A stretch of DNA of 42,218 nt from Asterionella formosa (GCA_002256025.1 NKIB01014599.1:1-42218), one strand, 5' to 3'. Shown: positions 2,674-41,999, counted from the stretch's first letter. Numbers and translations: made by a program. Notes: generated from the sequence alone by a model not told the origin.

Positions 2674-5143
2674 GGCGATTGAGAAACGAAGAAAAGAAGT
2701 TCGAAACAACGTTATTTGAGATGAAGCGCTAAACAAGCAAGTGTACAGCAGAGTCATATGTGGCGGGCGGGCGAGCGGCTGGAAGCTATCACAACCGAAA
2801 AATCCGAGTTGCTCAATCATGTCTCAAGAAAGGATTCAACATTCGTACATACACGTATGTAGGACTGGGATTTGGCAGTTGGTTTCTGTTTCCCGGGATG
2901 AGGATCACCAAACCGAAAATTTGAGGCATTATGTACTTCAAAGAAAGGCACGTCTGCTATTACCCGTCGCCTGTCGAAGAACGATAGTGTGGCATCAATC
3001 GAAAATAATCGATGATGAGTGCAGAATGAGCACCAGTAAACCAGTAATTGTACGTTGCTGTACGGCTGTGATGTATTATATGATTCGAAGCAAAGAATTC
3101 AATTTCTTGGTATTCATGTATGAATAAAGTATTTAATATATATTTCAACAGGCGGCCTCGAAGGGGAACTGAGCGATGAACACCGTTCGCATAATCGTTC
3201 GATGATGGCATCATTCTTGTTTGGCAGCACCGTACCATGGTACCAGGTAGGATACGTACGATGTAAGAATAACGGCCACATCCTCGACAATTTAAAACCT
3301 GTTCTGCACGCCTCACCGTCGACCAAAATCCTTAGCGTAGAGGTACCAGGTAGGTACTATAGTAAAGACCGGTACATCGGTAACCAGACATACAGACTAA
3401 TGGAATACCCCGTATGTACATAGGATATCAACTCAATTTTATTTTATTGAAGTTACCCCCGGGTACGTAGACTCAATTACCGACTTGTTCGACTGCCTTT
3501 CTGCAAATGTTCCTTTGTTTCCTGTCAATTCTTGAATGGTTCGCTTTGTTGCTCCAACTAATCCCTAGCCTCATAACTGGTGTTTGAATTCGGTTCTATG
3601 TAGATTGAGTAATTTGTTTACTCCAGGTCTCCCATAACTGCAGTAGAAGAGTTTTGCACTTTAGCCATGGGTGGGACTTCGGGTGGGTGAATTTTATCTA
3701 TAGACTATAAATTTGCATGGCTTGGTGGTCAACGATAGCTTCTTTGTTGACGCTGATTCGAAGAATTATGAGCTTTCTGCATTGAACTCTTGCATGGTTG
3801 TTCACTGACATGATATCAACTCTTCCATCACCCCCCTTGCTTCTCCTTGCATGATTTACATGTCGATTATTTCTTTCGAACTTCATCTTCAATTTTGCTA
3901 GGCTTGATTTAGCTCCTTTGGTTGTTGATCTTTCCTCAGCCTGCCTGCCTTCTGATTCCTCATGTTTCCCTGTTTTCAATGTGGCTGTGCTTCGTGCACA
4001 TCCCCTGTTTCCCTCCTCTATCAGCATAATCCACACTGGTCCCCTGGATTCATTGCTAATTTTTGTTGTATTGTTGGTTGAAGCTCATGTATCGACAAAA
4101 ATTTCACGCACAGGAATTGCCTTGCCTTTGTCACCATGACTGGATGATCGTTGGGTGGCTCTCTCCTTGGATAGGAGGTCACGGACACTTTCGCTTCGTT
4201 TTGGAGCCTGCATAACCTTATGTCCCTTCTTTTCGAGTATTGGGCGAACTACTAGTATTTAATTGATGAAGATTAGTGTCTTGGTCTTGAGCGGAAGGTT
4301 CACTTATTTGGCGAGGCGAAACAGATTGAACACCAGTGGTTTGGAAGTTCTTTTCCAATGACTTTCGTTGGCTGGGCTTTAGATAAAATCATCTGTGGGA
4401 GTCTCGCCGCAATCAACGATAATCACGTCATCATCACAGGACTTGATGAAGCCCGCGCCATCATGGTCCTCACTACCCGCCTAGTCTCATTCAGAGTGAG
4501 CAAATGACTTCGAAACGCGCCTCTGCTTGCAATTGCCTACTGCGTTTGGCCCCATCATGTTGTTACTCTATTGTGGAGTAGTTCAACAGAAAAAATCTGA
4601 AATCTGAGGAATGTTTTGCTTTTCATAAAAAGATTGTCAAAATGGAAAGTTTTATTGAAACTCAATTGTTTTTGAGGAAATTTAGATGCTCAAATAACTT
4701 GAATAATCTCTCCTTGAGGTTGCGGCGAAGGCATATATCCATTCCTAATAAAGTCAAGAACGCCATCCTTGTTCTTCCCATGCAATTGCTCTAAGAGAAG
4801 TAGCCACAAAATTAAGCATAACTCGTAAATGTTGCTAGAAGTACTGAAGCAAACCATAATTAAAGGAGTTGCAATAATGGGCGCACTTCGAAATACCAAA
4901 ATAATTTGTGCCAAAATTATTACATCACAAATATTCTTTGCTGATGTAATATATAATATCGTCAAGGCGCTCTGATACTCGAATTATTTTAGATAAATTA
5001 TCTGACAGTAAATATAAATTTAACTATAATTTACAACAGTAAAATTTTCATAGCGACGCATCTTCTGATGTGTTAGTATGCCTCCTCTTGTACGCACACT
5101 GTATACATGTTTTCCATAATTTATTCAGTGTCGGTCACGGACC

Positions 5144-6341
5144 ATGTTGGCTGACCTCTCATTTTCTGATGATGATGATATGATCATCACATTACTACTG
5201 CTAGCAGCATTTGATCTAGCAATAAACAAGACGGCATCATTTCATGAATGTTTGACTGTTGATGATATCAGAAGAAGAAGTGGCAAAATCCGGCGCCACA
5301 CACTACAGCATCCATTGTCAAGTCCATTCTGGACTTTGTTCAAGCAATAGCAAGCATGATGATGCCCTCATCACATTATGTGGGTTCGATCATGCTTCCT
5401 TCGGGCTCCTACACCAGCTATTCAAGCCTTATTTTGATTCCTTTACTCCCTGTAGAAAAAAAGGAATTCATTGTCAAGAATTCAACAACAAAATCTGGTC
5501 GACCCAGATTGCTGTGTTCCATCAGTCCTCTGGCACTTGGGCTGGCAGCATGGACTAGGACTCGTGGATCCTATATGATTCTTCAGATCATTTTCGGCTT
5601 AACTCATGGTTCCTTGAACATTTGGTTGCGGTTATCGAGGCGGATGATTGTCAAAGTGCTTCAGACTAATGAAGATGCCATTGTTCGACTACCTACTGCA
5701 GCCGAAACTACTTTATTTGCATCCATGATTCATAAGAAGTACCCTTTGGTAAATATTTTTGGGGAGCAATGGATGATCTGAAACTCACCCTGCAACGACC
5801 TGGAAATGAAAGGCAACAAAACAATTTCTACAATGGGTGGACTCATGAACACTATGTGACAAACTTGTTTCTTTTTTCTCCTGATGGAAAAATTCGTTTC
5901 TCTTATTTTAATGCACCTGGTGTCCTCCACAACTTTACCATGGCAATTTGGTCTTCAATCTATGATCAAAATGAAATGGTTTACAAGGATACAGGTAAAA
6001 AAGTAGTTGTGGATTCAGCATTTGCATCTAAGAAATCAAATGCAATGCTAAAATCCCATCAAAATAATTTGGATGCAAACGGTAATCTTCGACAAAGATT
6101 TGGCATAAATCGTCAAGCAACTTCAGTCAGGCAGTTGTCTGAATGGGAAATGAGGTGTCTTCAGGGGTCGTTTCCCAGGATGAAAGATATATTTCGTTAT
6201 GAAGAGAATGGTGAAAGGAAACTAATACTCCAAATGATTGTTTTACTATACAATTTTCGCGCCAGTCAAGTCGGCCAGAATCAAATTGCTTCGTTGTACC
6301 TGCCCTATTTGCATAGAAGTGCTAACAGATATGCATTTTAA
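5144..6341 (+). pseudogene. PIF/Harbinger (DDE_Tnp_4-type) transposase, frameshifted
   Basis: Harbinger motifs are spread over four ORF pieces: SSPFWTLF / DDALITLCGFDHASF / GRPRLL...WTRTRGS...IFGLT / MDDLKL...QNNFYNGWTHEHYV...FSPDG...NAPGVLHN...VVVDSAF...TSVRQLSEWEMRCLQGSFPR. Frameshifts fall near 5345, 5455 and 5765, and the usual HD motif reads HN. Confidence 0.9.
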
Positions 6342-6454
6342 GTCATAGAGTAATGTTTCAAAGACTTAGATTTACTATTTTCATTTAACTTATTCATCAT
6401 CACTACTACTGCTTTCGTTCTTGTCACCATTATTATCATTTGGGGTTTTAAATT

Positions 6455-6973
6455 CTATTGATGCAGATGAAGATGGTTGTGCATTTGTACTTGGCGTTTT
6501 GCAACAGTTGCTCCAGCGGAAACAGCAGGAGTTGTTTCTGGAGCGGAACAAGCAGGAGTACTATCCAAAGTTTCAACCACCGCTTCAGCATTGTCTTGAC
6601 TGTCCTCAAGTACCATGAATTCATCCTTGACATTGTTGCCATCTTCTATCCCAAGGTCTGTAGAATCAATTTCGCCACTAGCATCTGCTCTTTCCTCTAT
6701 TTTTCGGAATACTTGCTTAGCACATCGGACTTCAGCAGGACATGTTGGGTCACCAGTTGGTATTTTCACTTTATGTAGTTGTGCAAACTTTCGCCGAATT
6801 GAAGTTCCAGTCCGATCCTTGTCTGGAAAATTTTCATTGTGCTCGGATGCTACACATTCCCATTCATGTGATCCAATTGGAAGATGTGTCAGAACAGTGT
6901 AATACACATGATATAATATTTTTTTAATTTCGAAGTGCGCCCAATGATAACTGCTGTTGATCCCTCCTCCCAA
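6455..6973 (-). pseudogene. Myb/SANT-like (DUF6818-like) accessory protein of the Harbinger element, probably degenerate
   Basis: Motif LPIGSHEWECVASEHN...RTGTSIRRKFAQL...PTGDPTCPAEVRCAK. The ORF is convergent with the transposase, which fits the two-gene PIF/Harbinger layout. No clean ATG start. Confidence 0.75.
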
Positions 6974-7173
6974 AATTCTTTTCCGTTGTTGCCGTTAGAG
7001 ATAAAAATGTTTTCTTTGTTGATTAATTTAATTACATGACATACATTAAATCTATAAAATTAGTGTTGCTTGATGCTGTATCTGCAGCAAAGGCATATAA
7101 AACAACCAAAAATAGTTGATTTCTGATAAACATCATGTGTTATACCTACCACAGCCCATTGCTTAAGCTATCT

Positions 7174-7409
7174 AGGGGAATGGCTTAGTGGTTAGCACAC
7201 CTCATGAGGTGGCAGGTCCGATTCCTGCATTTTCCACCTGTCCTTCTTATATGTAGCCCCTAGGGTTCCATTTTGTGTGGCTGACAAGGAGACAGGTCCC
7301 ATTGTACTGTTCGGACGAATAAAACCGGTTCTAATTGTGTCCATTTATTTGGGCATAAGTGCGATTTTTGGATAGCTTTAACGTACTCTAAGATTTAATT
7401 GACAATTTT
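7174..7409 (+). mobile_element. tRNA-derived SINE (236 bp) with 16-bp TSD
   Basis: Identical direct repeats ATTGCTTAAGCTATCT lie at 7158-7173 and 7410-7425. The tRNA-like head (7175-7238) has A-box TGGCTTAGTGG (7181-7191), B-box-like GGTCCGATTCC (7215-7225), T-stem GCAGG/CCTGC and acceptor stem GGGGAAT/ATTTTCC. The 3' end is AT-rich. Confidence 0.85.
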
Positions 7410-8090
7410 ATTGCTTAAGCTATCTGCTTTTTGGCCTTTGTCGCTCATGGTTCGAACAAGCAAAGGGCTCCAATTTTTCCTATTGATTACCCTTTTCTGA
7501 CTCTGTACAATTTCCAACAATAGTTTTTCTAACTTCTACAATGCATTGGATATGTATTTGCAATACCTCAACATAGCAATCAGCATGAAAGAAAGCAATA
7601 TGCAATCAACCATGATGGCTTTTTGAGCTTTGAAGGGTTGCAAAGGATAACGAACGCAAAGGCAATTACTCTAGCTGCCTGGACTTTTTATGAATAGTAG
7701 AACAGGGAATAAGATATTTTCTTCTCGAGTAATCGCCATCTGGATGAACTTATCACTAATATAATTTTTACTTTAGTTGTCTTCTCACTTGAATGCTGAG
7801 CAATGCGTCCATCATGACAGTAGTTTCCTTGGTGCTGGCTCTCCGTGAGTATGTTTCAGATTCGCTCCAATGCACCTTCGCAGGTAAACAGTATGGATTT
7901 GTATCAAAACAGGAAGGATGTAAGGAAGCTATGACAATCAAGGAAATTTACATATTCAGTCCTCGTTTGTGCCATGGCTACTGACTGTGGACAGAGGGTT
8001 GAAAAATCAAAGCAAATTAACGTTATTGTACTGTCAGATGACACACTGTTCTAAAATTACAACTTGTTAGCCTTAATAAGTGTCATTACC

Positions 8091-9056
8091 CTAGGAGAGA
8101 TATCCGAGTCCAAGATGAAATCGAAGTTGCTCGTACACTGTTGAATAGGTCAACATAACTGGAGTCAGTCGAAAAAAGAATATTGGCCAACCTCTCCAGA
8201 ACCCTGTCACTCCGTTTTTTCTGTACACACTTTGAATACAATGCAATAATGTCCTCTTCGAATTCATGTACTTGGCCATGATGAAATCAGCAGGCGCTGA
8301 TAAGAGACTGGCTCCAAAGGAAGCAGAAATACTTGCGACAACATGTAACTTGGTGTCGTCTTCTAACCCTCGCTCTTTCAACATCGTCTTTACCCCATCA
8401 TAACCCAGCATTTGACCAGCTGTAAAGAGCCCACCACGAACTGCCAATGTCTCAGATCCTTTCCAAAGACCTCCTAGACCTCGCTCATTTACAATTTGTG
8501 TAACTCGTTCAAGGTAATTGTTTCTTTTTCCTGGTCCACTTTGTGCTTGAACTTGAGTCTTTAGAAGGTGAAAGGGTGTTGTAACACAGTATGCAGTCGC
8601 TCCGCAAATCAGCCCCGCCAGAACCATGTGATGGCCCATTTTTTCTTGTCCAGATAGTCCATCTCGAACAATTTCGTAGTACCCAAACCGAACTGCAGAC
8701 GCACAAGCCATTCCTGCCGCATTGACTGCCAGTCCTGGCCTCCACAATCCATTGACGATTCCTTCTTGTCTCAAAATTCTGGCCGCAAACTCAATCAACG
8801 TTGTCTCAGATGTCAATTTGACTTGCCATCGAACTCTTAGACAGTCCAAAGGATTGTAGATAGCAGAGGAAATAGCAGAGGCTGTCCCTGCTGCAATAAA
8901 GTGCCGCCAAGTTGGAAGGGTACACTTCCTTGTTTCTCTCTCTCCTATTTTAATGTATTCTTCAAAATGGTGTTGTGATTTTGATGGAGGAGCGATGAGT
9001 GCAACTGATGACACATCGTACCGATCTAACCTCAATTCGTTACTGATTGCCTGCAT
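8091..9056 (-). CDS. Mitochondrial carrier (SLC25) family protein, dicarboxylate/oxaloacetate/UCP-like
   Basis: 321-aa ORF with three carrier repeats. Px[DE]xx[KR] signature variants PLDCLRVRWQ, PFHLLKTQVQ and PADFIMAKYM, and second-half motifs GLWRPG, GLWKG and GFWRG. Confidence 0.93.
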   Translation of the reverse strand: MQAISNELRLDRYDVSSVALIAPPSKSQHHFEEYIKIGERETRKCTLPTWRHFIAAGTASAISSAIYNPLDCLRVRWQVKLTSETTLIEFAARILRQEGIVNGLWRPGLAVNAAGMACASAVRFGYYEIVRDGLSGQEKMGHHMVLAGLICGATAYCVTTPFHLLKTQVQAQSGPGKRNNYLERVTQIVNERGLGGLWKGSETLAVRGGLFTAGQMLGYDGVKTMLKERGLEDDTKLHVVASISASFGASLLSAPADFIMAKYMNSKRTLLHCIQSVYRKNGVTGFWRGWPIFFFRLTPVMLTYSTVYEQLRFHLGLGYLS

Positions 9057-10021: not shown

Positions 10022-13000
10022 ATGGTGAGTTCATGGGCAAGCCTAGAAGGGGAGACACTGAGCGTTAAATAAGAGATCATATCACGCAGCAGTTTGGAAC
10101 GACCGTGATTCGACAACAGAGAGCGAACGGATCGGAAGCAAAATGGAAATTTGCGAAATCCTCCAGGTCCATAATCCAGCAACTAACTCTTGTCGAATTG
10201 CTCCCAAACTCCCAAACTCCGTTTCTTCGCACGCAAACACGCACGTGCTGTACAGCCGCTTCGATTGGATATCAAGAAGAAACTTTCTGCCTCGTCAGAA
10301 CGCGTCAAGTCCGTTGATATTCACCACAGCGAACCATGGGTACTTGCTGCCTTGTACAGCGGCATTGTCATGATTTGGGACTACGAGACCGGAAGTTGCG
10401 TCAAGTCCTTTGAACTCAGTGAATTGCCCGTCCGATGTGCCAAGTTTATCTCGCGCAAGCAGTGGTTCATCGCGGCGTCGGATGATATGCGCTTGCGAGT
10501 GTTCAACTACAACACCATGGAGAAAGTTAAGGAGTTTGAAGCGCATGGCGACTACATTCGATCCCTGGAGATTCACCCGACTTTGCCATATGTTTTGTCC
10601 TCCTCCGATGACATGACCATCAAGTTGTGGGACTGGGACAAGAATTTTGATTGCACGCAAATGTTTGAGGGTCACGCACACTACGTCATGCAGGTCAAGT
10701 TCAACCCGAAGGACACAAACACTTTCGCTAGTGCCAGTTTGGATAGATCCATCAAGGTATGGGGTCTTGGCTCACATACGCCGCATTATACTTTGGAGGG
10801 CCATGAACGTGGTGTCAACTGCGTGGACTATTACCCCTCTGGGGACAAGCCTTACATTTTGTCGGGGGCCGATGATCGCACCGTAAAGATTTGGGATTAT
10901 CAGGTAGGTTAGGGGTGGGCACATTCGTCGCTCATGTTACCAAGATCAGTTTTGTCTCACGTGTTGTACTTTGCTCTGTAGACCAAGTCCATTGTCCACT
11001 CTTTGGATGGGCACACCCATAATGTGTGCGCCGTCATGTTTCACCCAAAACTGCCCATTATTTGTTCCGCATCTGAGGACGGAACTGTACGCATCTGGCA
11101 AAGTACCACCTACAGAGCAGAGACTACTCTCAACTACGGGATGGAACGTGCATGGGCATTGGCCGCCAGCCCAAACACCAACAAACTTGCTATTGGTTTT
11201 GACGAGGGTTGCGTCTGTATCGAGCTCGGATCGGACGATCCTGTAGCTTCTATGGATGCCACAGGAAAGGTTGTTTGGGCCAGAAATAATGAGATCCAAA
11301 CCACATCAGTAAAGGGTGTCGCCTCTGGAACTAGTGAGGACGATGCACTTCCTGATGGTGAACGCCTTCCTATCGTTGCTCGTGATTTAGGGTCTTGTGA
11401 ACTCTACCCATCCAGTCTCAAGCATAACAGCAACGGGCGATTTGTAGCTGTCTGTGGTGATGGAGAATTCATTATCTATACATCGCAAGCTCTTCGTAAC
11501 AAGGCTTTCGGGCAAGCGCTTGACTTTGCATGGTCGGCCACTGCCACTGGAGACTATGCCATTCGAGAGTCAACGTCGCGGGTCAAAATCTTCAAGAACT
11601 TCAAAGAGAGCCTTGCCTTCCAGCCTGCTACAACGTCAGCCGAAGGACTTTTCGGTGGCGCTTGTGTTGGAGTCAAGGGGGCTGATGAAGCTGTCCTCTT
11701 TTATGACTGGGAAAGTGGTGTTTTCATTCGCAAGATCGATGTCGCTCCAAAGGAAGTTTTCTGGTCGGACGCGGGAAACTTGGTCTTATTGGCGTGCAAG
11801 GATTCGGCGTACGTTCTCACTTACAATGCCCAACGCGCTGCACAGGCAATTGCAGCAGGAAAGGTTTCTGCTGAAGATGGTATCGACGGAACCTTTGATC
11901 TTTTGTACGAGATCAATGACACAATTACTTCGGGAAAATGGGTTGGTGACTGTTTCATCTACGTGAACAGCGTTGGCCGTCTCAATTATAGCGTTGGGGG
12001 ACAGATCCAAACACTGGTGCACTTAGATACTTCAGCTGGTGGGACTACTCAGCACACCATTCTGGGATACCTGGCCAAGGAGGACCGCGTTTTTTTGGTT
12101 GACAAGAATCTTAACGTAACTGCTTATTGTGTTATGTTATCTGTCCTTCAATACCAGACTGCTGTCATGCGTGGAGACTTTGATGCTGCCAACGAGTTAT
12201 TGCCTCATATTCCAGAGTCAGAATATACAAAGGTTGCACGTTTCCTCGAGTCTCAAGGATTCAAGGAAGAAGCCCTCGCTGTCACTGCAGATCCAGACCA
12301 CAAATTCGACCTTGCCGTTGAGCTTGGCCACATCGATATTGCTCACACCATCATCCTCGAAACCCCCGATGAAGAAAAGGATAGCACAGAAACTATGGCT
12401 AAATGGAAAAAGCTCAGTGATTGCGCTTTGATGGACACCAATCTTGACCTTTGTGAAGCTGCCAGTATTGCGAGCAATGACTTTTCAGGTTTATTACTCT
12501 TATATTCCGCAACTGGAAATCTTGAAGGATTGGAAAACCTTGCAACACTTGCTACCGAAGGCGGAAAGACTAATGTTGCGTTTGTTGCTAACTTCCTCTC
12601 GGGAAATGTCGAAGCATGTGTTGATTTGCTCGTTGGTACCAAGCGCCTTCCCGAAGCCGCGTTTTTCGTTCGTACTTACTTGCCATCTCGCATCAACGAA
12701 ATTGTTACTCTTTGGAAAGAAGATCTTGCCACGGTTAGTGAATCAGCTGCGAAAGCACTCGCCAAGCCAGCAGAAAATCCTGCTTGTTTTCCTGACATCG
12801 CAATTGGGGTCAAAGTTGAGAAAATGTTCTTGGCTCAACGTGACCAAAGCAAAGTAACGGGTATTCCGGCATCAGACTACCTAACTGCAAAGGATGACCT
12901 GGAGTTGAATCTCATTTCGTTGATCAAGAGCAAATCGAAACCTCAAGCCCCTCCGGCAGAACCAGAGTGCAAGGTTGGCTATGTTGACGGCGGACAAGCA

Positions 13001-13201
13001 GCCGCGGCCGCAGCCCTGGCTGAAGCTGACCCTGAACATGTCGCAGCGTTGGCTGAAGCTGAACGTGCCGCAGCGTTGGCGGAAGCGGCCAAAATAAGGG
13101 AAGAGGAAGAACGCGCAGTAGTAGTAGCAGCAGCTGCTGCAGTCGCAGAATCAGAAGTGCCAAACGACGATAGCACGAACGACTTTGGCGAGGATTGGTA
13201 G
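10022..13201 (+). CDS. COPB2: Coatomer subunit beta' (WD40 repeats plus solenoid)
   Basis: Exons 10022-10024 (ATG only), 10256-10903 and 10982-13201, joined by GT-AG introns. Splicing gives the conserved start [11 protein letters not shown]...[11 protein letters not shown] repeats, [11 protein letters not shown] and the [14 protein letters not shown]...RNKAFG motif. Confidence 0.97.
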
Positions 13202-22075: not shown

Positions 22076-22470
22076 CTGGTACCTAGTAAGTAGGGTACCT
22101 GGTACCACGTACCGTGTAGTCTATACTCTTGGAGTACCGGGTAGATAAACATACCGGTATGTATTGTGCAGACTACCTGGTACCTGGTGCGTACCTGTAG
22201 ACGAACGCGAGTTGCTTTTCCTCAAGGAAAGAATCCTTGTTTGCTTGCTTACTGGAAGTGACTACCGGTAATATGATGATGGTACCTGGTACCTGATGGC
22301 CTGGAATATAAAATAAGCCTTTCGAAATTTATTTTTCTGTCCTCAGTAATTGCTACCAGCAAAATCATTGCTTGGAGACCTCTTTTTGACCAGAACAATC
22401 GTGCTTCACCGTACAAGTCAATACCCCATTTGAATTAACTGCTAGAAGTGCGAAAGTTACAGTCATAGCC

Positions 22471-24541: not shown

Positions 24542-25077
24542 TCAGTCCAAGGCCGCCGCGCCCTCGGCGAGAACATCGCTCTCAGTTGAAATAATTGGTA
24601 GTTCCTCGGTGTCAACTTCACTTCTTTCCGCTCCCTTTCCGATTGCCTTCCTACTATTCATGTGGATCCCCATGAAATTGAAAATGACATGAGTCAACAT
24701 GAAACGCCAAAACGCTAGTATTAGATTTTCCTGGTTCGCGCTGAGAGGAACCGGCTTCTCCGGTGGCACCTCGTCTATCTCGGGCAACTCTGATAAGTCA
24801 AGTTCTCTTGACTTTTCCTTTTCTTCTGGCATCAGCACATCTTCAGGAATGGGCATCGGCACATCTTCAGGAATGGGCATTGACAAAACAGAGGGAAACA
24901 ACATTATAGTAAGCAGGAGTGGAAATTATGCACAAGAATAGCAATTCGTTGTAGTAACGAATTTCCATTGAGCTTACCTTGTTCTGCCTCAGGAACATTT
25001 TTGGGAAAGCAGCATAGAAGGAGATTGAAGCATTTCGTCTCCCTTTTTGGTGTTAGGTCCTCAATAGGGAAACTCAT
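24542..25077 (-). CDS. Small hypothetical protein, probably two exons
   Basis: ATG at 25077, exon to 24978 with a strong GTAAGC donor, then an acidic ORF ending at 24542. The acceptor position (near 24840-24900) is uncertain. Includes a 24-bp tandem duplication at 24828-24875 (MPIPEDV x2). Confidence 0.5.
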
Positions 25078-25391
25078 GTTGACTTGTCCAAGCAGAAGCG
25101 ATGCTGTGATCCTTTCTTCTTTTCCTTTTTGAGCGACCATAAACTATTACCGGTACGTAAATAACAAACCGGTACCTGGTACCCGGTGGCACACGATAGT
25201 ATCCAATTCGTACTACAATACTGGTAATTCTTGTACACCATAAAGGTACCGGTTCCCGGTACCAGGTACTCCGTCTTGTTCGTCGTGGTCTTGGCGAGGC
25301 CAACAAGATGGCATCGCCCCCAGCAATACTGTAATGAATACAGTACTCCGTACCTGGTACCAGGGTACCAGTACGTCGTACCTAGTACCAG

Positions 25392-25492
25392 CAAGAAGTT
25401 GCGGTAATTGTCCTGACGCTAAAAAAGCAATGTTTAGCTTTTTTATCCCATATTAAATAAATTGTTTTGTTAAGCAAAATGACCGCAACTTG
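25392..25492. mobile_element. MITE family A, copy 1 (101 bp), TSD CAG
   Basis: CAG|CAAGAAGTTGCGGTAATT...AGCAAAATGACCGCAACTTG|CAG. The reconstructed empty site reads GTACCAGGTACC. Confidence 0.75.
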
Positions 25493-25545
25493 CAGGTACC
25501 AGGGTATGGTGCCTCTGGTACTATTCACCAAAGTCATTACCAGAG

Positions 25546-25614
25546 GAAGGTCCGGTAATCGAGAGATTTAGCTTATTCTTGTCTTTAGTAAAATCCGTAT
25601 TTTACCGGACCTTG
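25546..25614. mobile_element. MITE family B copy (about 69 bp)
   Basis: GAAGGTCCGGTAATCGAGA...TTTTACCGGACCTT. Same TIRs as, and similar interior to, 40510-40573. The TSD is not preserved. Confidence 0.7.
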
Positions 25615-26533
25615 TACCCAGTATACCTGATACAACTGGTAACTGGTACTACCTTGTAGAGGTATGCCAACATACATAATGCATTTGTACCCAAGTGTAA
25701 ACAGAAGGAACTAAGCTAGAGGTAAACAGTGATCCCTATTAGCACTGGTAAGTATCCTCTCTCACCATGGAGCACGATGTAAAAATGTCAATTAAATTTC
25801 ATATCACATTAAAGCTATCCAATATTTGCACTCGTGCCTGCCCTGCAGTTGTCAGGATTAAAAAAGCAGGTTCTGGGTAATTATAGTGAATTGGTAATAA
25901 GTGCAGTGAATTTGTAATCAGGTAATCATTGGGTAATTATGAGCTTAATTAAATAATTAGTGTATCTATATTAACTCATAGCTAAAGGGATTCACAAGCG
26001 CCATTATGAGAAGGATTCACAAGGACCTTAATGTGAAGGTCATTAGATGTCCTACTAACATTGACGGCACAGCTATGCTAGAAGTACATATATACCAATA
26101 GTTATCATGTACCAGTAGCATGAAGTTGCAGGTACACAATGCAATATGTACCTATCATATGAGCTACATACTAGTAACACCTACAAATCATGATCAGTCC
26201 CGTGTACATGTACAGTATGTACTACATATGCTGGGTACCACCATGGAAGTAGTCATGTGCATAATTTTAAAGGGTACACCTATCACTTAGGGTTGACGTG
26301 GTATATCTACACCGTGTGTATTGTGTAAATTTCTACAGTGCGAGTAAACAAGTATATGGTCTGTATAGAAAAGCCTATAAAGTTAACGTTGTATAGGGCT
26401 TATACCATCTAATATAGTAGCTATATCTAGCGTGATGTATACAGTACCATGGGTCAGGGCCCAAATATTTTCAGCTAAACCATCAAATGAGTCGATTTCA
26501 GCGCCACTGCAGCTACACATTATCAAACAAGCT

Positions 26534-26975
26534 ACAAGCAGATGAACAAATCACAAGAGTTGACAAGAAAATCATGGAGATAGACTGAAATGACCGAAAT
26601 CCACCCAAAAGCATCCTTAAATTGAGTAAAGCTTTTGACAATCTCCACGCATCCAAATCAGATCCATACAGACAGACCCTTTCTGTCCCACTGTATCTAC
26701 ACAGTACATACTAATGAGCAACAAACAGAGGAAAGAACCTCAAGAATTGACAAGAAACTCATGGAAATAGACCAAAATGACCAAAATCCCAACAGCATCA
26801 TTAAATTGAGTAAAGCTTTTGACAATGTCCACGCATCCAAATAAGATCCAGCCAGACAGACAGTTTCTGCCCCACTGTATCTATACAGTACATACAACAA
26901 ACAGATGAAAGAATCACAATAATTGACAAGAAACTCAGCCACGGAGATAGACCAAAATCCAACCAATGCACAGCA
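26534..26975. repeat. Tandem repeat, approx. 180-187-bp unit, about 2.4 copies
   Basis: Units start near 26534, 26721 and 26897. Shared blocks include TTGACAAGAAA.TCA, TTAAATTGAGTAAAGCTTTTGACAAT.TCCACGCATCCAAAT and CCCACTGTATCTA.ACAGTACATAC. Confidence 0.9.
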
Positions 26976-27532
26976 TCATTCAAATGATGAATGGCCACGC
27001 TCAGGCAAGTTTTATTAAAGGCATATGGAAACAAACAAAGAAAAAAATTAATCAAGTTTCTAGACCCACCACCTGCAAGACAACTGTTATTCATGGACCT
27101 GGCTACAAACACTGATGGCAATTTTTTCCTATGCAAGGGAGTGACCACCCAAACCTCTCCACCACCCCACCAAGTTCTTTTCTGGGCCATGGAGCGCAAT
27201 TAATACAATCATGTAGCAAGCTAGGCTAGTAGTAATGCAATATAAAAATTATTGACATACATGATGCATTTACTTTTAGACTACATCATAGCAGCGCACC
27301 TACTACATACTTGGTGGGTAGTAGACTATTGTTACCTTGTACTCTTAGCAGTTTCTTTCTGGCTTTACAGGCTGATATGAGTTTCCCTTTGAGGCCCAAT
27401 ATGAAGGGAGTCTATCTTTTCTGGCAGGCATGAGACGATCTATTGGAGTGCGTCGAAACTGAAAATGTGCACATAAAACGTGCGGAACCGGACCTTCCAG
27501 GTGGTAGCAGGAAGCACTATCTTAGCTACCTG

Positions 27533-27637
27533 CAAGTTGCGTTAATTTTGCTCAACTAAAGATTTAGCTATCTATAAAAGTTTAGCTAAATTTATCCAAG
27601 ATTAAAATGTTAGTTTAAGCAAAATGACCGCAACTTG
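27533..27637. mobile_element. MITE family A, copy 2 (105 bp), TSD CTG
   Basis: CTG|CAAGTTGCGTTAATTTTGCT...AGCAAAATGACCGCAACTTG|CTG. The reconstructed empty site reads TACCTGGT. Confidence 0.8.
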
Positions 27638-27881
27638 CTGGTGCTTGCTTACAAGGTTCTGATACCCCAGTACTCTTCCCTTTTCCACCGACCGGTAACT
27701 GGTAATACTTCCACCAGGGATACCACATCCTTTACCAGTTACGAGTACCAGGGTACCTGGTACCAGGTTCCTATTACGCGTACCTGGTACCCTGGTACCT
27801 GGTGCCATGTACATATAGTACCAGGTATCTGGTGTGGTGTGCTCACTTTTCTTGATGCCCTTGGTGTGATGCCAGTAGGCG

Positions 27882-28775
27882 ATGACAATGACGAAGAGCA
27901 TATCAAGCGTATTTTTCTTGGTCACTCTTGTTGCCTCGTCCCATGCATTTCGTCCCACGTGCCAATCAATGCGCCCAGCTACATCATCTGCGATAAATCT
28001 CAATAACTTGTTCAACTTCAATAAGCCGGAGCCAGAGAAAAAAGAAGAAGAATTTCAAGATGCTGCATATGACAACGATGACCCAGTCGAAAAGATGTTC
28101 AGTTTTTTCTTCGGAAAAAGGGAGGAATCACCCATGGGAATGGCTCGATTTGGATCTGGTAGATTTCCAGAGCAATATCCCGCAACAATAGACGAGTGGG
28201 CGGACCCGGTCCAAGGCGACGATCCTGAAATGGCGAAACTTCGCCCTTTGCTCAAAAATACAAACTTGGAAACCCGTCGACTGAAATTAACTTACTCGGC
28301 GAATAAAAATGGATGGAATGCTGAAAAGTTCCATCAAGCCGTTGACAAACTAGGTGGAGCCTTGGTTGTTTGCACGACTACATCAGGACTTGTTTGTGGC
28401 GGATACAATCCAAAGGGATGGGTAGGCTATGGCGAAGCTCGCGGCTCGATTGCTGCTTTTCTTTACGTATTTAACAGTGATGGAAGTGTAACGAAGCTAA
28501 GGAAGGTTGGTGGACCAGGTCTTGCTCAAATGGACATGCCCGAAGCGGGTCCTTCATTTGGAGCCGATTCTTTGGTGATTCCACTAGGCAGGGACAAACC
28601 CAAACAGGCAAGAAGTAAACTTGGTTCCTACTTCGAACGCTTTCCCGACGGCACCAATAGTCTATTTGGAAAAACTGCATCAGCTGAACTGAAGGAACTC
28701 AAAGTCTACCATGGTGTCTATGCACAAGGTGAATACATTCCATTCACCGACGCCGAGCCTTTTGCCCTGTACTAA
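27882..28775 (+). CDS. TLDc-domain protein, probably plastid-targeted
   Basis: Signal peptide ending ASSHA-FRP followed by a Ser/Thr/Arg transit-like stretch. TLDc motifs L.YSANKNGWNAEKFHQAVD, GGYNPKGW, AFLY and GPSFGADSL. Confidence 0.9.
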   Translation: MTMTKSISSVFFLVTLVASSHAFRPTCQSMRPATSSAINLNNLFNFNKPEPEKKEEEFQDAAYDNDDPVEKMFSFFFGKREESPMGMARFGSGRFPEQYPATIDEWADPVQGDDPEMAKLRPLLKNTNLETRRLKLTYSANKNGWNAEKFHQAVDKLGGALVVCTTTSGLVCGGYNPKGWVGYGEARGSIAAFLYVFNSDGSVTKLRKVGGPGLAQMDMPEAGPSFGADSLVIPLGRDKPKQARSKLGSYFERFPDGTNSLFGKTASAELKELKVYHGVYAQGEYIPFTDAEPFALY

Positions 28776-32279: not shown

Positions 32280-33179
32280 ATCTACTGAACTCGAATAATG
32301 GCATGCCCAATAACATACCTTGTACCAGGTACCATTTTTTTTAAATCATTTGTCCAAGGAGGATGGAGGGGTGTACAGTAGCGGTTTTCAGGGAAGTACT
32401 CCGAGTACCACCCTGGTACAAAACAAAGGTGATAGGTCTGTCTCGCGGTCTGGGAACAAAAACATGAACTCAAGAGCAAATTATTTTTCGTTTTATACCG
32501 GTAATATAAGATACCGGTAGTGAAATGATTACCGTACGGTAGTTCATAGAATCTCCTAACAGGTACCACTCTGTCGTACCAGGGTACCAGGTACCTAGTA
32601 CCAGGAACAAGGTACCAGGTGCCAGGTCCATGGTACCTGGTACTGTACTAGTGTTTAGTTACGAGGTGACCGGCATGAAAAGATCATCCGGTCATGGTGC
32701 AGAAACCATGATGCTTTATATCCATACTGGATATCTACTCGATGCATAAATAAATGTACATATCTATGCTTATATGTAAGTATTTATGTATGTGTGTTCG
32801 TACATAAGGTTACAATTTACCGGTATCTCTCGGTATTTAAATATTCCGGTAACGGTTTATCCCACAAGTACAATACATAGCTCCACTCTCAATACCAGGT
32901 ACCAGGTACCGTAGATGTTATGACCGAGGTCTAATATTTTTATCGTACCGCATGTAAGTACGCACACAGGTCCTGGTACCTGGTACCAGGTACACTTCAG
33001 TGAGCCACAACCTCACAACAGCCATCAAGATGATGTTGAGATGACAAAAACATAGTACTACCGGTAGTTAGTAAGAAATACCACCGGTGTAAAACGTTTC
33101 GATTGTCAATGTGGACATCGTTTCGGCGGGTGGCTGCTCATTTCACGTGCTTGCCGCTTGAACGATCTCCCTAAATACC

Positions 33180-38105: not shown

Positions 38106-38801
38106 GTTGATTTATGTATGGAATGAACTCAGCATTTGGTACCTGGTACTGGGTACCGGGTTTACCCTGCCTGGGTGGTCCCGTTACCTGGTATCAGGTT
38201 ACCTGGAACCAGGTACTGGTATACCGGTACGCTGGGCTGCTCGATGTGGACCACCCTCATTGCTTCCCAGCTACCGGTAGAATGTCGTACATACCGGCAT
38301 ACCGGTACCGGTACCGGTAGACATACCGATACATATTTAATCCGGAAATTTGTCTGTTGTCTGGCTACATGCAGGTGGTATGTAGACTGGTGTCGTAGAA
38401 CACGAACGAGCAAGAAGGGTACAAAATGCAAATCTGATGATACTGTGAGTACTTTGCATTTATGTATGTGATAAATATATATTAATAGCTCATTTGAACA
38501 TCGTTCTCACGTACCCTACAGTCCGCCCAACAGACAACGAACAATCATAATACAAGGACATGTAAGTAGAAATGAATGTCCATGAGTCAAGGCCGGTGTG
38601 ATTGTTGCCATAATCACATCTGCCTGTAAGCTCCACTTACCCTTTCATCATTGATGCTTCTATTTCAATTGAAAATCAGAAAACTGACGATAAGAAACCA
38701 AGGCATCTGCAAATTGAAGTGGTCTCAACTTTGAATATTACTTCCTCGCGTTGCAACATTTCCAGCATTAATAACACAAAGGAAACATTCATTGCAGCAG
38801 T

Positions 38802-39644: not shown

Positions 39645-40509
39645 GGCTGGCTGTGGCTAGTTCCATTCTTTGGAGAAATATTTTCATAGCATGAATGGGG
39701 AATGGGCTTCTCCGAGGTTCCTGCTGTACATAGAATGACAACATAATGCCCATAAGTACTGAGAATTTGTTTACCATGTCTGTTCTTTATTTTGGACCAC
39801 AGTCTATGATACCAGTAGTAGAACATATAATGCAGTTCACTGAAAAGTTCACTTGTGTGAAAACTAGTATCTGGTGGAGTACCATCAAGGTGTGGTAAAT
39901 TTGCTGAAATGGCGATTTGGACATTGCAGATGATACTTAAGCAAATATACTTGCTAGATCGCACAACAGTTATCTTTTAAGTGTGGTATAATCATTTTGA
40001 ATTCCTTTTCTTCTGGGACTAGATTTGGCTTGAACCATTTTAGGGTGAAACTCATTCCCCCAATCTCCAACCTCCCAATCAAAATATAATTGGGGGATTT
40101 TACCAGATAACAAGATTCCATTTTGGTCAGAGGCACAAACAGATACACAGAGCATGTTTACCAACAGCTAATGACTGTACATATGTGATGATAATACATA
40201 AATGATACGTGAAGGATAAAATATAAATGTACATGTATACATTCATGAAGACAAGACATGCCCAAGGTGATCTCTTGCCTGCAAGTACACATGTGTACAA
40301 GAAGGCAAGTAGCTGCCAAGAATGGTATTCCTATTATTGAGGCAAGCAATTCACAAACTACAAGGTACTATCAGGAGGTGCCATAGCGAATATCAATCAA
40401 TGATGACCTATGCATATGGCACAGCAGTATGGCCACAGATTACCAGTTACATTAGATGGTTCAAGCCCAATATAACGTTACCGGTAACCTGTTACGCTCT
40501 TCTACACAG

Positions 40510-40573
40510 GAAGGTCCGGTAATCGAGATAATTAACTTAATCTTAAGTACAAAACGTGTTTTACCAGACCTTC
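40510..40573. mobile_element. MITE family B copy (64 bp), TSD CAG
   Basis: CAG|GAAGGTCCGGTAA...TTACCAGACCTTC|CAG. The 13-bp TIR has one mismatch. Confidence 0.8.
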
Positions 40574-41999
40574 CAGACTACCGGTATGTTTTATATTCTT
40601 GTTCTTACTCTCGCTGTAGATACTTACTACACAAGCAATTGAGACAGTGTACCGGTACATATATATGTACATGTCAACCCCAAGTGAAAGGTGTTCCCAT
40701 TTACATTCTGCACATGATCAACATGGTACCAGGTACCTGGTACCCATATATACTAGTCCACATGCATACATGTACTCGGGACTGATCATGATCAGTACGT
40801 GATTCCATGCAGATAGCTACCTACTAGCGTGTCTCATGTACTAAGTACATATTGCATTATGTATGCGAGGCTGTATGACTCGTCAAAATCATTAGTACAT
40901 ATGTATCTCAAGAGTAGACGTAGCAATGCTCCTAAGCTTAAGGTTCCTGCATTTGAACCCCTAGCTCGAGGTAGGGGTAAAATAATAATATTTAGTCAGA
41001 ATATTCAAACACACACTTCTTGCGAATAAATTATAAATGTATATCGCTAAACAGAGCTTTCACCAATAGACACTCTTTCCATATGCTTAGATACAGTCAT
41101 TGATCAAAGTAAGGGTATAGATCAACTCTATATAACATCAGTATGATATAGAATCTGGTCAGAAACTGCAGAAAGGACCTTTTTCGCGCCGAAATTTAAC
41201 TTCTGGGGGTATGTGAAGATTACCTAGTATGTACTTAACTCTTCTTCAAACCCTGCCAACATTGAGCTATTGTTGTCCAAAAATTTGACAAAATAAGGGC
41301 GCCCCGAAGCCAAAGTTGGCAAAAGTAAGAAAAGTTGGCAAAAGAAAGCAAATCTTGCTTACATTGCTTTATTCTCTCCAAACTCAAAATTGTTCTCCTT
41401 TTCCAACCAAAGTGATGAAAACAACCAATAATGAACGGTTCTATAACAATTAGGATTTGAAATATTTGCTTGCTAGTGTCATCATATGTAACAACTACCA
41501 GTAGTCATACCCAATATAACTATTATACAATTCCACCATATGAATGCTGGTGGCTGGAATCATGCTGGTGGTGCTCAGGGTACCATGGTAACCAAGGTAG
41601 CACTCGTAAGCACTTGTATATAATTATTCGATTCTTTTCTAAAGATAATATATTTACCAGTATAGCACTACGGAGTCACTGTGTACTGGTAGTGGTCATG
41701 AGCAAGTGGAGTATGCATGGTGCATCATGTCATCTCAGCCTTGACCATGACGAAATCAATACATATCTTCATGGAAAATGAGAATGACGCTTTGCTATTG
41801 GGTACATATATTGAGCACGATGTAGAAAATACGATCGTAAAAGAATAGTTGTGATAACTCTAATGTTGATAACGAAAATTGAAATATCCGATAGCGCATT
41901 TTTTAATGATTATTTTATAGCTTCACAGTTCAAAATGCTGATACTACTATCAGCAGATTTGACACTTTCACAGTACATCTAAGACGCGAAATACGCCAC

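Follow-up and report, generated by a model that had tools for sequence, protein, structure and literature searches.

A multi-copy, dispersed family of tRNA-derived short interspersed elements (SINEs) was found in a freshwater diatom. A complete copy of 236 bp lies in the window, the whole stretch of 42,218 nucleotides that was analysed, and consists of a tRNA-like head, a family-specific body and a distinct 3′ module, enclosed by an exact 16-bp target-site duplication (TSD). By structural definition the element is a tRNA-derived SINE. It is short (below about 700 bp), non-coding and non-autonomous, its 5′ head is tRNA-derived with A and B boxes and a sub-threshold Rfam score, and many dispersed copies with unrelated flanks were present in four of four sequencing runs. 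Thus the core reading of the initial annotation stands: the tRNA-derived SINE is complete, carries a 16-bp TSD of its own and lies in a diatom genome. It is likely that the element belongs to those transcribed by RNA polymerase III (Pol III) and moved by a LINE via target-primed reverse transcription. The coordinates of the features are collected in Table 1.

Table 1. Positions of the SINE, its modules, its depth bins, its truncated relative and its neighbours in the window. Depths are summed contig depths in the runs X1, X2, X7 and X9, and ratios are relative to the unique right flank.
Feature	Position	Strand	Basis or remark
TSD, left copy	7158..7173	.	Exact 16-mer; outside the repeat family, contig match lost at 7173-7175
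Complete SINE copy, 236 bp	7174..7409	+	Boundaries set by the TSD and independently confirmed by contig loose ends
tRNA-derived head	7175..7236	+	Rfam RF00005, 23.7 bits; cloverleaf minimum-energy fold
A box TGGCTTAGTGG	7181..7191	+	11/11 to the consensus
Palindrome CACCTCATGAGGTG, 14 nt, replacing anticodon arm and variable loop	7198..7211	+	About 8 nt shorter than in tRNA; 5-bp stem, 4-nt loop
B box GGTCCGATTCC	7215..7225	+	10/11 to the consensus, one mismatch
Family-specific body, least repeated module	7237..7289	+	Depth ratios in bin 7233-7273: 24, 35, 12, 34 (X1, X2, X7, X9)
3′ module (tail), most repeated part	7290..7409	+	Depth highest in bins 7315-7396; joins other sequence at 7290
Terminal TTTT, candidate Pol III terminator	7406..7409	+	No A-rich tail
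TSD, right copy	7410..7425	.	Exact 16-mer; X2 (7327-7900) and X7 (7367-7900) contigs bridge element and flank
Head bin, summed depth	7192-7232		X1 244549, X2 6550, X7 544, X9 1326; ratio about 263, 203, 65, 186
Tail bins, peak summed depth	7315-7396		X1 547113, X2 12980, X7 1557, X9 2163; ratio about 588, 403, 187, 303
5′-truncated 59-bp tail copy, same 3′ terminus	25780..25838	-	47/59 bases identical to 7352-7410
DDE_Tnp_4 ORF	5736-6341	+	Pfam
DUF6818 ORF, upstream neighbour of the element	6455-6994	-	Pfam
Mitochondrial carrier gene, downstream neighbour of the element	8091-9056	-	
TACCTGGTACC-type copies	22096-22298, 25173-25366, 27754-27834, 32316-32992, 38140-38215		

The 16-mer ATTGCTTAAGCTATCT was found only at the two edges of the insert when the 42,218-base window was searched with up to two mismatches allowed. 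The chance expectation was 0.04 matches, and none of 100 shuffles reached two matches. The bases next to the two copies are unlike on the left (C/T) and on the right (A/G), so the repeat is exactly 16 bp long and the insert is exactly 236 bp. The insert between identical 16-mers described in the initial annotation was therefore confirmed, with 16 of 16 bases identical. Seventeen direct-repeat families were detected within 600 bp; ATTGCTTAAGCTATCT is an exact pair with a spacing of 252 bp (family D17), and the longer families are near-tandem duplications with spacings of 19-188 bp. The termini of the insert are not TG...CA, and no terminal inverted repeats were found, the first 20 nt being unlike the reverse complement of the last 20 nt. 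The longest stop-to-stop frame in the insert has 55 aa (7208-7372). It gave no match among proteins of 98-2000 residues, which is a weak negative, and on that same weak negative a derivation of the body and tail from the 3′ end of a LINE ORF was set aside.

The head was borne out as tRNA-like although its score was sub-threshold. The Rfam tRNA model matched over model positions 1-71 with an E value of 0.045; the gathering score of 29 was missed because the anticodon region has 13 nt in the model and only 5 aligned nt here. The minimum-energy fold of the head was a cloverleaf: its acceptor, D and T stems comprise 7, 3 and 5 bp, the T loop has 7 nt, and a hairpin with a 5-bp stem and a 4-nt loop takes the place of the anticodon arm. 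The shortened anticodon arm covered by a palindrome, as first proposed, is indeed present, and no majority variant falls within the palindrome among the positions listed. A functional tRNA gene was ruled out at this site: ARAGORN called no tRNA gene at the head, the Rfam score was below gathering, and the anticodon arm has the dimensions just given. A gathering-level Rfam scan of the whole window returned no RNA family. On the minus strand, a match to the Plastid-ycf2 5′UTR RNA model at 7177-7237 scored 23.5 bits against a gathering score of 65.7 and was rejected; it is taken as chance or as the mirror of tRNA-like sequence. Fold energy was likewise discarded as evidence, since it was not significant for the head (z −1.31, with 23 of 200 shuffles folding equally well) or for the whole element (z −0.68). 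The sole pointer to the tRNA-Ala origin suggested earlier is the acceptor-stem G3:U70 pair, the anticodon being deleted, and this origin is a weaker claim than the core reading.

The Pol III A box has the consensus TRGCNNAGTGG, and the A and B boxes of the head were scored against the consensus sequences of Pol III promoters. The two boxes lie 23 nt apart, closer than they do in tRNA genes. The one mismatch in the B box lies at position 7218, where other family members read T, giving the canonical GGTTCGATTCC with a B box of 11/11. This letter was supported by 151319 of 156797 of the summed depth and by 93 contigs in X1, and by 73, 37 and 57 contigs in X2, X7 and X9, respectively.

The dispersal of the element was studied in public sequencing runs. 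Part of the region 6600-8000 is contained in 20 listed runs from 16 studies, mostly freshwater, lake and algal metagenomes. Contigs from one DNA run in each of four studies (X1, X2, X7 and X9) were matched to 6700-7900 at a likeness of at least 80%, and 3642, 730, 393 and 542 contigs, respectively, were placed on the 1201-base stretch, totals that include an unrelated upstream repeat. The unique right flank (7438-7900) had a flat depth of 930, 32.2, 8.33 and 7.13 in X1, X2, X7 and X9. Relative to this flank, the depth of the element ranged from 12 to 588 by bin, and in the tail bins it was 579-588 in X1, 337-403 in X2, 145-187 in X7 and 280-303 in X9; since summed contig depth is not copy number, these ratios can be read only as tens to hundreds. 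Moreover, 37-117 distinct contigs per run carried the element at the variant sites 7218, 7330 and 7367, and the family letter at 7330 was carried by 117, 87, 58 and 68 distinct contigs in X1, X2, X7 and X9, respectively.

The contigs also defined the ends of the repeat unit. On the left, loose ends were located at 7174/7175 in X1 (15 and 21 contigs), X2 (14 and 24) and X7 (5), and at 7173 (11 contigs) and 7175 (16 contigs) in X9. On the right, loose ends at 7409 were observed in 33, 22, 11 and 16 contigs of X1, X2, X7 and X9. These positions indicate that the inner edges of the 16-mers are the limits of the repeat unit and that the 16-mer lies outside it. Beyond the loose ends, the agreement of the onward-flank consensus was 0.40-0.53, which indicates that the flanks of the copies are unrelated. 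The initial annotation would have given up its reading for a single copy, or for copies all sharing the same 16-bp flank. The depth ratios and the numbers of distinct contigs dispose of the former, and the loss of the match at the 16-mer edges together with the low flank agreement disposes of the latter. Exact patterns were also searched: the head pattern had no loci in metagenome, viral and genome contig collections and the tail pattern none in metagenome and viral contig collections, all seemingly without the host organism, so that these searches are silent on copy number. In the RNA runs X14, X16 and X20, 0.18-0.32 of the sampled words of 6600-8000 were present.

The element is modular. The body is skipped or replaced in many contigs, as in the joints 7194>7274 and 7207>7274 and in the joints 7217>7339 and 7267>7315, which carry 3 and 9 other letters, respectively. 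In X9, 10 contigs switch to other sequence at 7290. Contigs that are colinear through head, body and tail also exist, covering 7197-7406 in X2 and 7189-7391 in X7 and X9. The body-skipping joints and the colinear contigs together indicate that the head and the tail are each common to other subfamilies or families. The tail would presumably be the recognition site of the partner reverse transcriptase. In other copies, too, the element closes with AATTTT, beyond which the flanks are unlike (loose ends at 7400/7402, X2 and X7). A 17-mer of the body was found in no paper in a literal text search of the literature. Nothing was found in support of membership in a central-domain superfamily (V-SINE, MetaSINE, CORE and others); the initial annotation had speculatively likened the body to the V and Meta types.

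A 5′-truncated copy of the tail is present on the opposite strand of the window at 25780-25838, with blastn E values of 2.5e-6 and 1.3e-4 against the tail. The preservation of the 3′ end without the 5′ part suggests the product that target-primed reverse transcription leaves; the end of a related element is an equally good reading. No tRNA-like head was detected within 25300-26700, and no exact flank repeat of at least 8 nt accompanies this copy, whereas the complete copy has its own TSD of 16/16. No Pfam domain was detected at E ≤0.01 in 13 ORFs around it; a weak DUF1137 match nearby had an E value of 0.048, below its cut-off. The surrounding region, 25400-27700, holds several other short repeats, which also match 40505-40801.

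The complete copy is decayed. It departs from the depth-weighted majority of X1 at a minimum of 13 positions, of which 7214, 7218, 7232, 7249, 7257, 7271-7273, 7308, 7311, 7330, 7356 and 7367 were listed. The change at 7218 spoils the B box, which the majority letter restores. Besides the terminal T run, the copy has internal runs of four or more T at 7230-7233, 7271-7274 and 7365-7369. With the B-box mismatch and these three runs, the copy is probably inactive, as judged from its sequence. The majority letters erase the three internal runs, and the majority change 7249 A>T makes a new run at 7247-7250; for this reason, the statement that source copies lack internal T runs was rejected as it stood.

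The fairly recent insertion that the identical TSD had at first suggested was not borne out, in view of the number of majority differences and because no empty site was seen. A perfect TSD is compatible with a divergence of about 5%, since only 32 bases are at risk. As for an empty-site allele, no joint across 7174-7425 was present among the 15 joints listed of 31 in the four runs. The right junction was bridged by contigs of X2 and X7 under a rule of 31 letters. The left end was entered by only 27-28 letters by contigs of X2 (to 7200) and X9 (to 7201), and contigs of X1 and X9 begin only 27-30 letters before the right end, both short of the same 31-letter rule.

The window is eukaryotic, encoding coatomer beta′ (COPB′), a mitochondrial carrier, an aldehyde dehydrogenase, a nucleotide-sugar transporter, a galactosyltransferase and histone H2A. 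All the named best hits of the aldehyde dehydrogenase ORF were diatoms with 66-77% identity, including Cylindrotheca, Nitzschia, Odontella, Epithemia, Amphora, Attheya, Thalassiosira, Cyclotella and others, and this supports the diatom host proposed earlier; unnamed environmental hits reached 81-100%. The coatomer beta′ gene (10190-13201, plus strand) is divided into two ORFs, 10190-10912 (WD40) and 11003-13201 (second propeller and TPR), and the gap of about 90 bp between them is probably a short intron.

Upstream of the SINE, 5266-7090 is a remnant of a PIF/Harbinger-like DNA transposon with the DDE_Tnp_4 and DUF6818 ORFs. Its part 6700-7090 was highly repeated in all four runs, with a depth of up to 496891 in X1 against 930 for unique sequence. 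Other copies of this repeat continue past 7088 with one shared sequence (agreement 0.95, 30 X1 contigs), so at that point the window's copy either diverges or has been truncated. The SINE is set apart from this repeat by about 85 bp of sequence that is nearly single-copy (bin 7110-7150, 1602 against 930 in X1). With regard to a LINE in the window, neither a reverse-transcriptase nor an endonuclease domain was detected in the scanned ORFs, which formed partly overlapping sets of 13, 19 and 16 and comprised ORFs of at least 50 aa in 24900-27900 and 4800-8100 and of at least 120 aa elsewhere. Other repeats were also noted. There are 16 dispersed copies of a TACCTGGTACC-type 16-mer, mostly clustered between long ORFs; the direct-repeat families D1 and D3 are dispersed 16-19-mer copies of this type. 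Either a regulatory motif or a short repeat of palindromic form could account for them. Furthermore, about three tandem units of roughly 185 bp with 80-91% identity occupy 26504-26985, where no Pfam domain was found in the scanned frames.

In the mechanism considered likely here, the A and B boxes inside the head would serve RNA polymerase III as the promoter of source copies, and transcription would halt at the 3′ T run. The 3′ module of about 60-120 nt, which has no A-tail, would then be recognised by a reverse transcriptase that a partner non-LTR retrotransposon (LINE) provides. Once the LINE endonuclease had nicked the target, target-primed reverse transcription would copy the RNA on the spot, and the 16-bp duplication would result from a second nick made at a distance of 16 bp. 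An RTE-like LINE is a reasonable guess for the partner, because the element has no A-tail and an RTE-like non-LTR family is reported from the diatom Thalassiosira pseudonana (PMC2806351).

A different target-primed machine, for example a Penelope-like element, might instead have moved this tRNA-headed non-autonomous retroelement. Such a machine would accord with the missing A-tail and with the scanned ORFs of the window, in which no LINE partner was found, and the 16-bp TSD shows staggered nicks and reverse transcription rather than which enzyme made them. However, no hammerhead or other RNA family was found in or around the element, a head, body and tail together with a Pol III promoter make up the classical plan of a SINE, and the RTE-like LINE family is known in another diatom (PMC2806351). 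This alternative is considered unlikely. The site could also be read as a decayed tRNA gene or pseudogene beside unrelated repeats, with the 16-mers paired by chance or by local duplication, so that there would be no single mobile unit. The sub-threshold tRNA score would fit, as would the very different depths of head, body and tail, which show that the modules also occur apart. The loose ends in four runs nevertheless coincide with both inner edges of the 16-mers, single contigs in X2, X7 and X9 span head, body and tail, and a second 16-mer did not arise in any of the shuffles, all of which make this account highly unlikely.

A non-autonomous DNA transposon (a MITE, for example one linked to Harbinger) or the solo LTR of a tRNA-headed LTR retrotransposon was also weighed. 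TSDs are 3 bp long in Harbinger elements and 4-6 bp in LTR elements, lengths that the 16-bp TSD far exceeds. In addition, the termini are neither inverted repeats nor TG...CA, and the stretch of near single-copy sequence lies between the SINE and the upstream repeat. On this evidence of non-inverted termini and TSD length, membership among MITEs or DNA transposons was rejected. What would favour such an origin is the presence of the DDE_Tnp_4 and DUF6818 ORFs 180-1400 bp upstream, in a stretch that is also highly repeated, and the existence of tRNA-headed LTR elements (PMC10886601); this origin is nonetheless the least probable of the alternatives. Movement of a Pol III-transcribed SINE by a LINE remains the preferred reading.

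The element is of an ordinary kind; what makes it of interest, to diatom genome biology and as a source of markers, is taxonomy and practical use rather than mechanism. With its clear head-body-tail plan, its 16-bp TSD and depth ratios in the hundreds, such a family would supply diatom genomics with a defined SINE and would imply that an active LINE partner exists, one worth finding. Studies of strains and populations would also gain presence/absence markers, in a diatom found in many freshwater metagenomes.

SINEs were long thought to be absent from most unicellular eukaryotes, a view quoted in PMC5859163 and PMC7466962. As reported in the cited papers, Phaeodactylum tricornutum has 13 "putative SINE" copies totalling 1,454 bp, called the first in a diatom (PMC5859163), SINEs are mentioned for Cyclotella cryptica (PMC7466962), SINEs make up 0.2% of the P. 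tricornutum genome and are noted in "only two other diatom species" (PMC8147415), and they account for 0.02% in Chaetoceros tenuissimus (PMC8613185). The family in our study shares the host group and the class label with the "putative SINE" annotations of P. tricornutum, C. cryptica, Skeletonema costatum and C. tenuissimus. Those annotations are automatic with very small totals and, in the cited passages, come without a described head, tail or TSD, whereas the anatomy of the present family is defined and its depth ratios run into the hundreds; the two are set apart here by descriptions and not by sequence. Among the papers that literature searches listed, none describes the head, tail or TSD of a diatom SINE in its title or abstract, and an entry in Repbase or Dfam is possible. 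The remark that SINEs are little described in diatoms thus fits the literature at that level, where only small automatic annotations appear. It is possible, if not quite probable, that this is the first anatomically defined high-copy SINE family of a diatom, with an anticodon arm collapsed to a palindrome, A and B boxes that are unusually closely spaced and putatively functional, and a tail common to several element families. Were this so, it would speak for LINE activity, perhaps RTE-like, and Pol III retroposition that are recent or ongoing in a unicellular lineage long believed to be almost devoid of SINEs.

The infSINE families of oomycetes are tRNA-related SINEs of microbial eukaryotes. 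AfuSINE2 from Aspergillus fumigatus is also tRNA-related, with direct-repeat TSDs of 4-14 bp (PMC5063351). Both have tRNA-related heads and short direct-repeat TSDs in common with the present family and live in hosts once thought to be SINE-free; they belong to another lineage, and the likeness is one of description and not of sequence. The general plan of tRNA-derived SINEs is head, body and tail, as outlined in PMC5786205 and PMC7245038. Compared with the tRNA-derived SINE2 elements that have LINE-derived tails ("stringent" pairs), the element likewise has a tRNA-like head with A and B boxes, an unrelated body, a distinct 3′ module, a long TSD, and many dispersed as well as 5′-truncated copies. 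It differs from them in that the anticodon arm is cut to a 14-nt palindrome with the A and B boxes brought to 23 nt, and in that the end is AATTTT, neither an A-tail nor a simple repeat.
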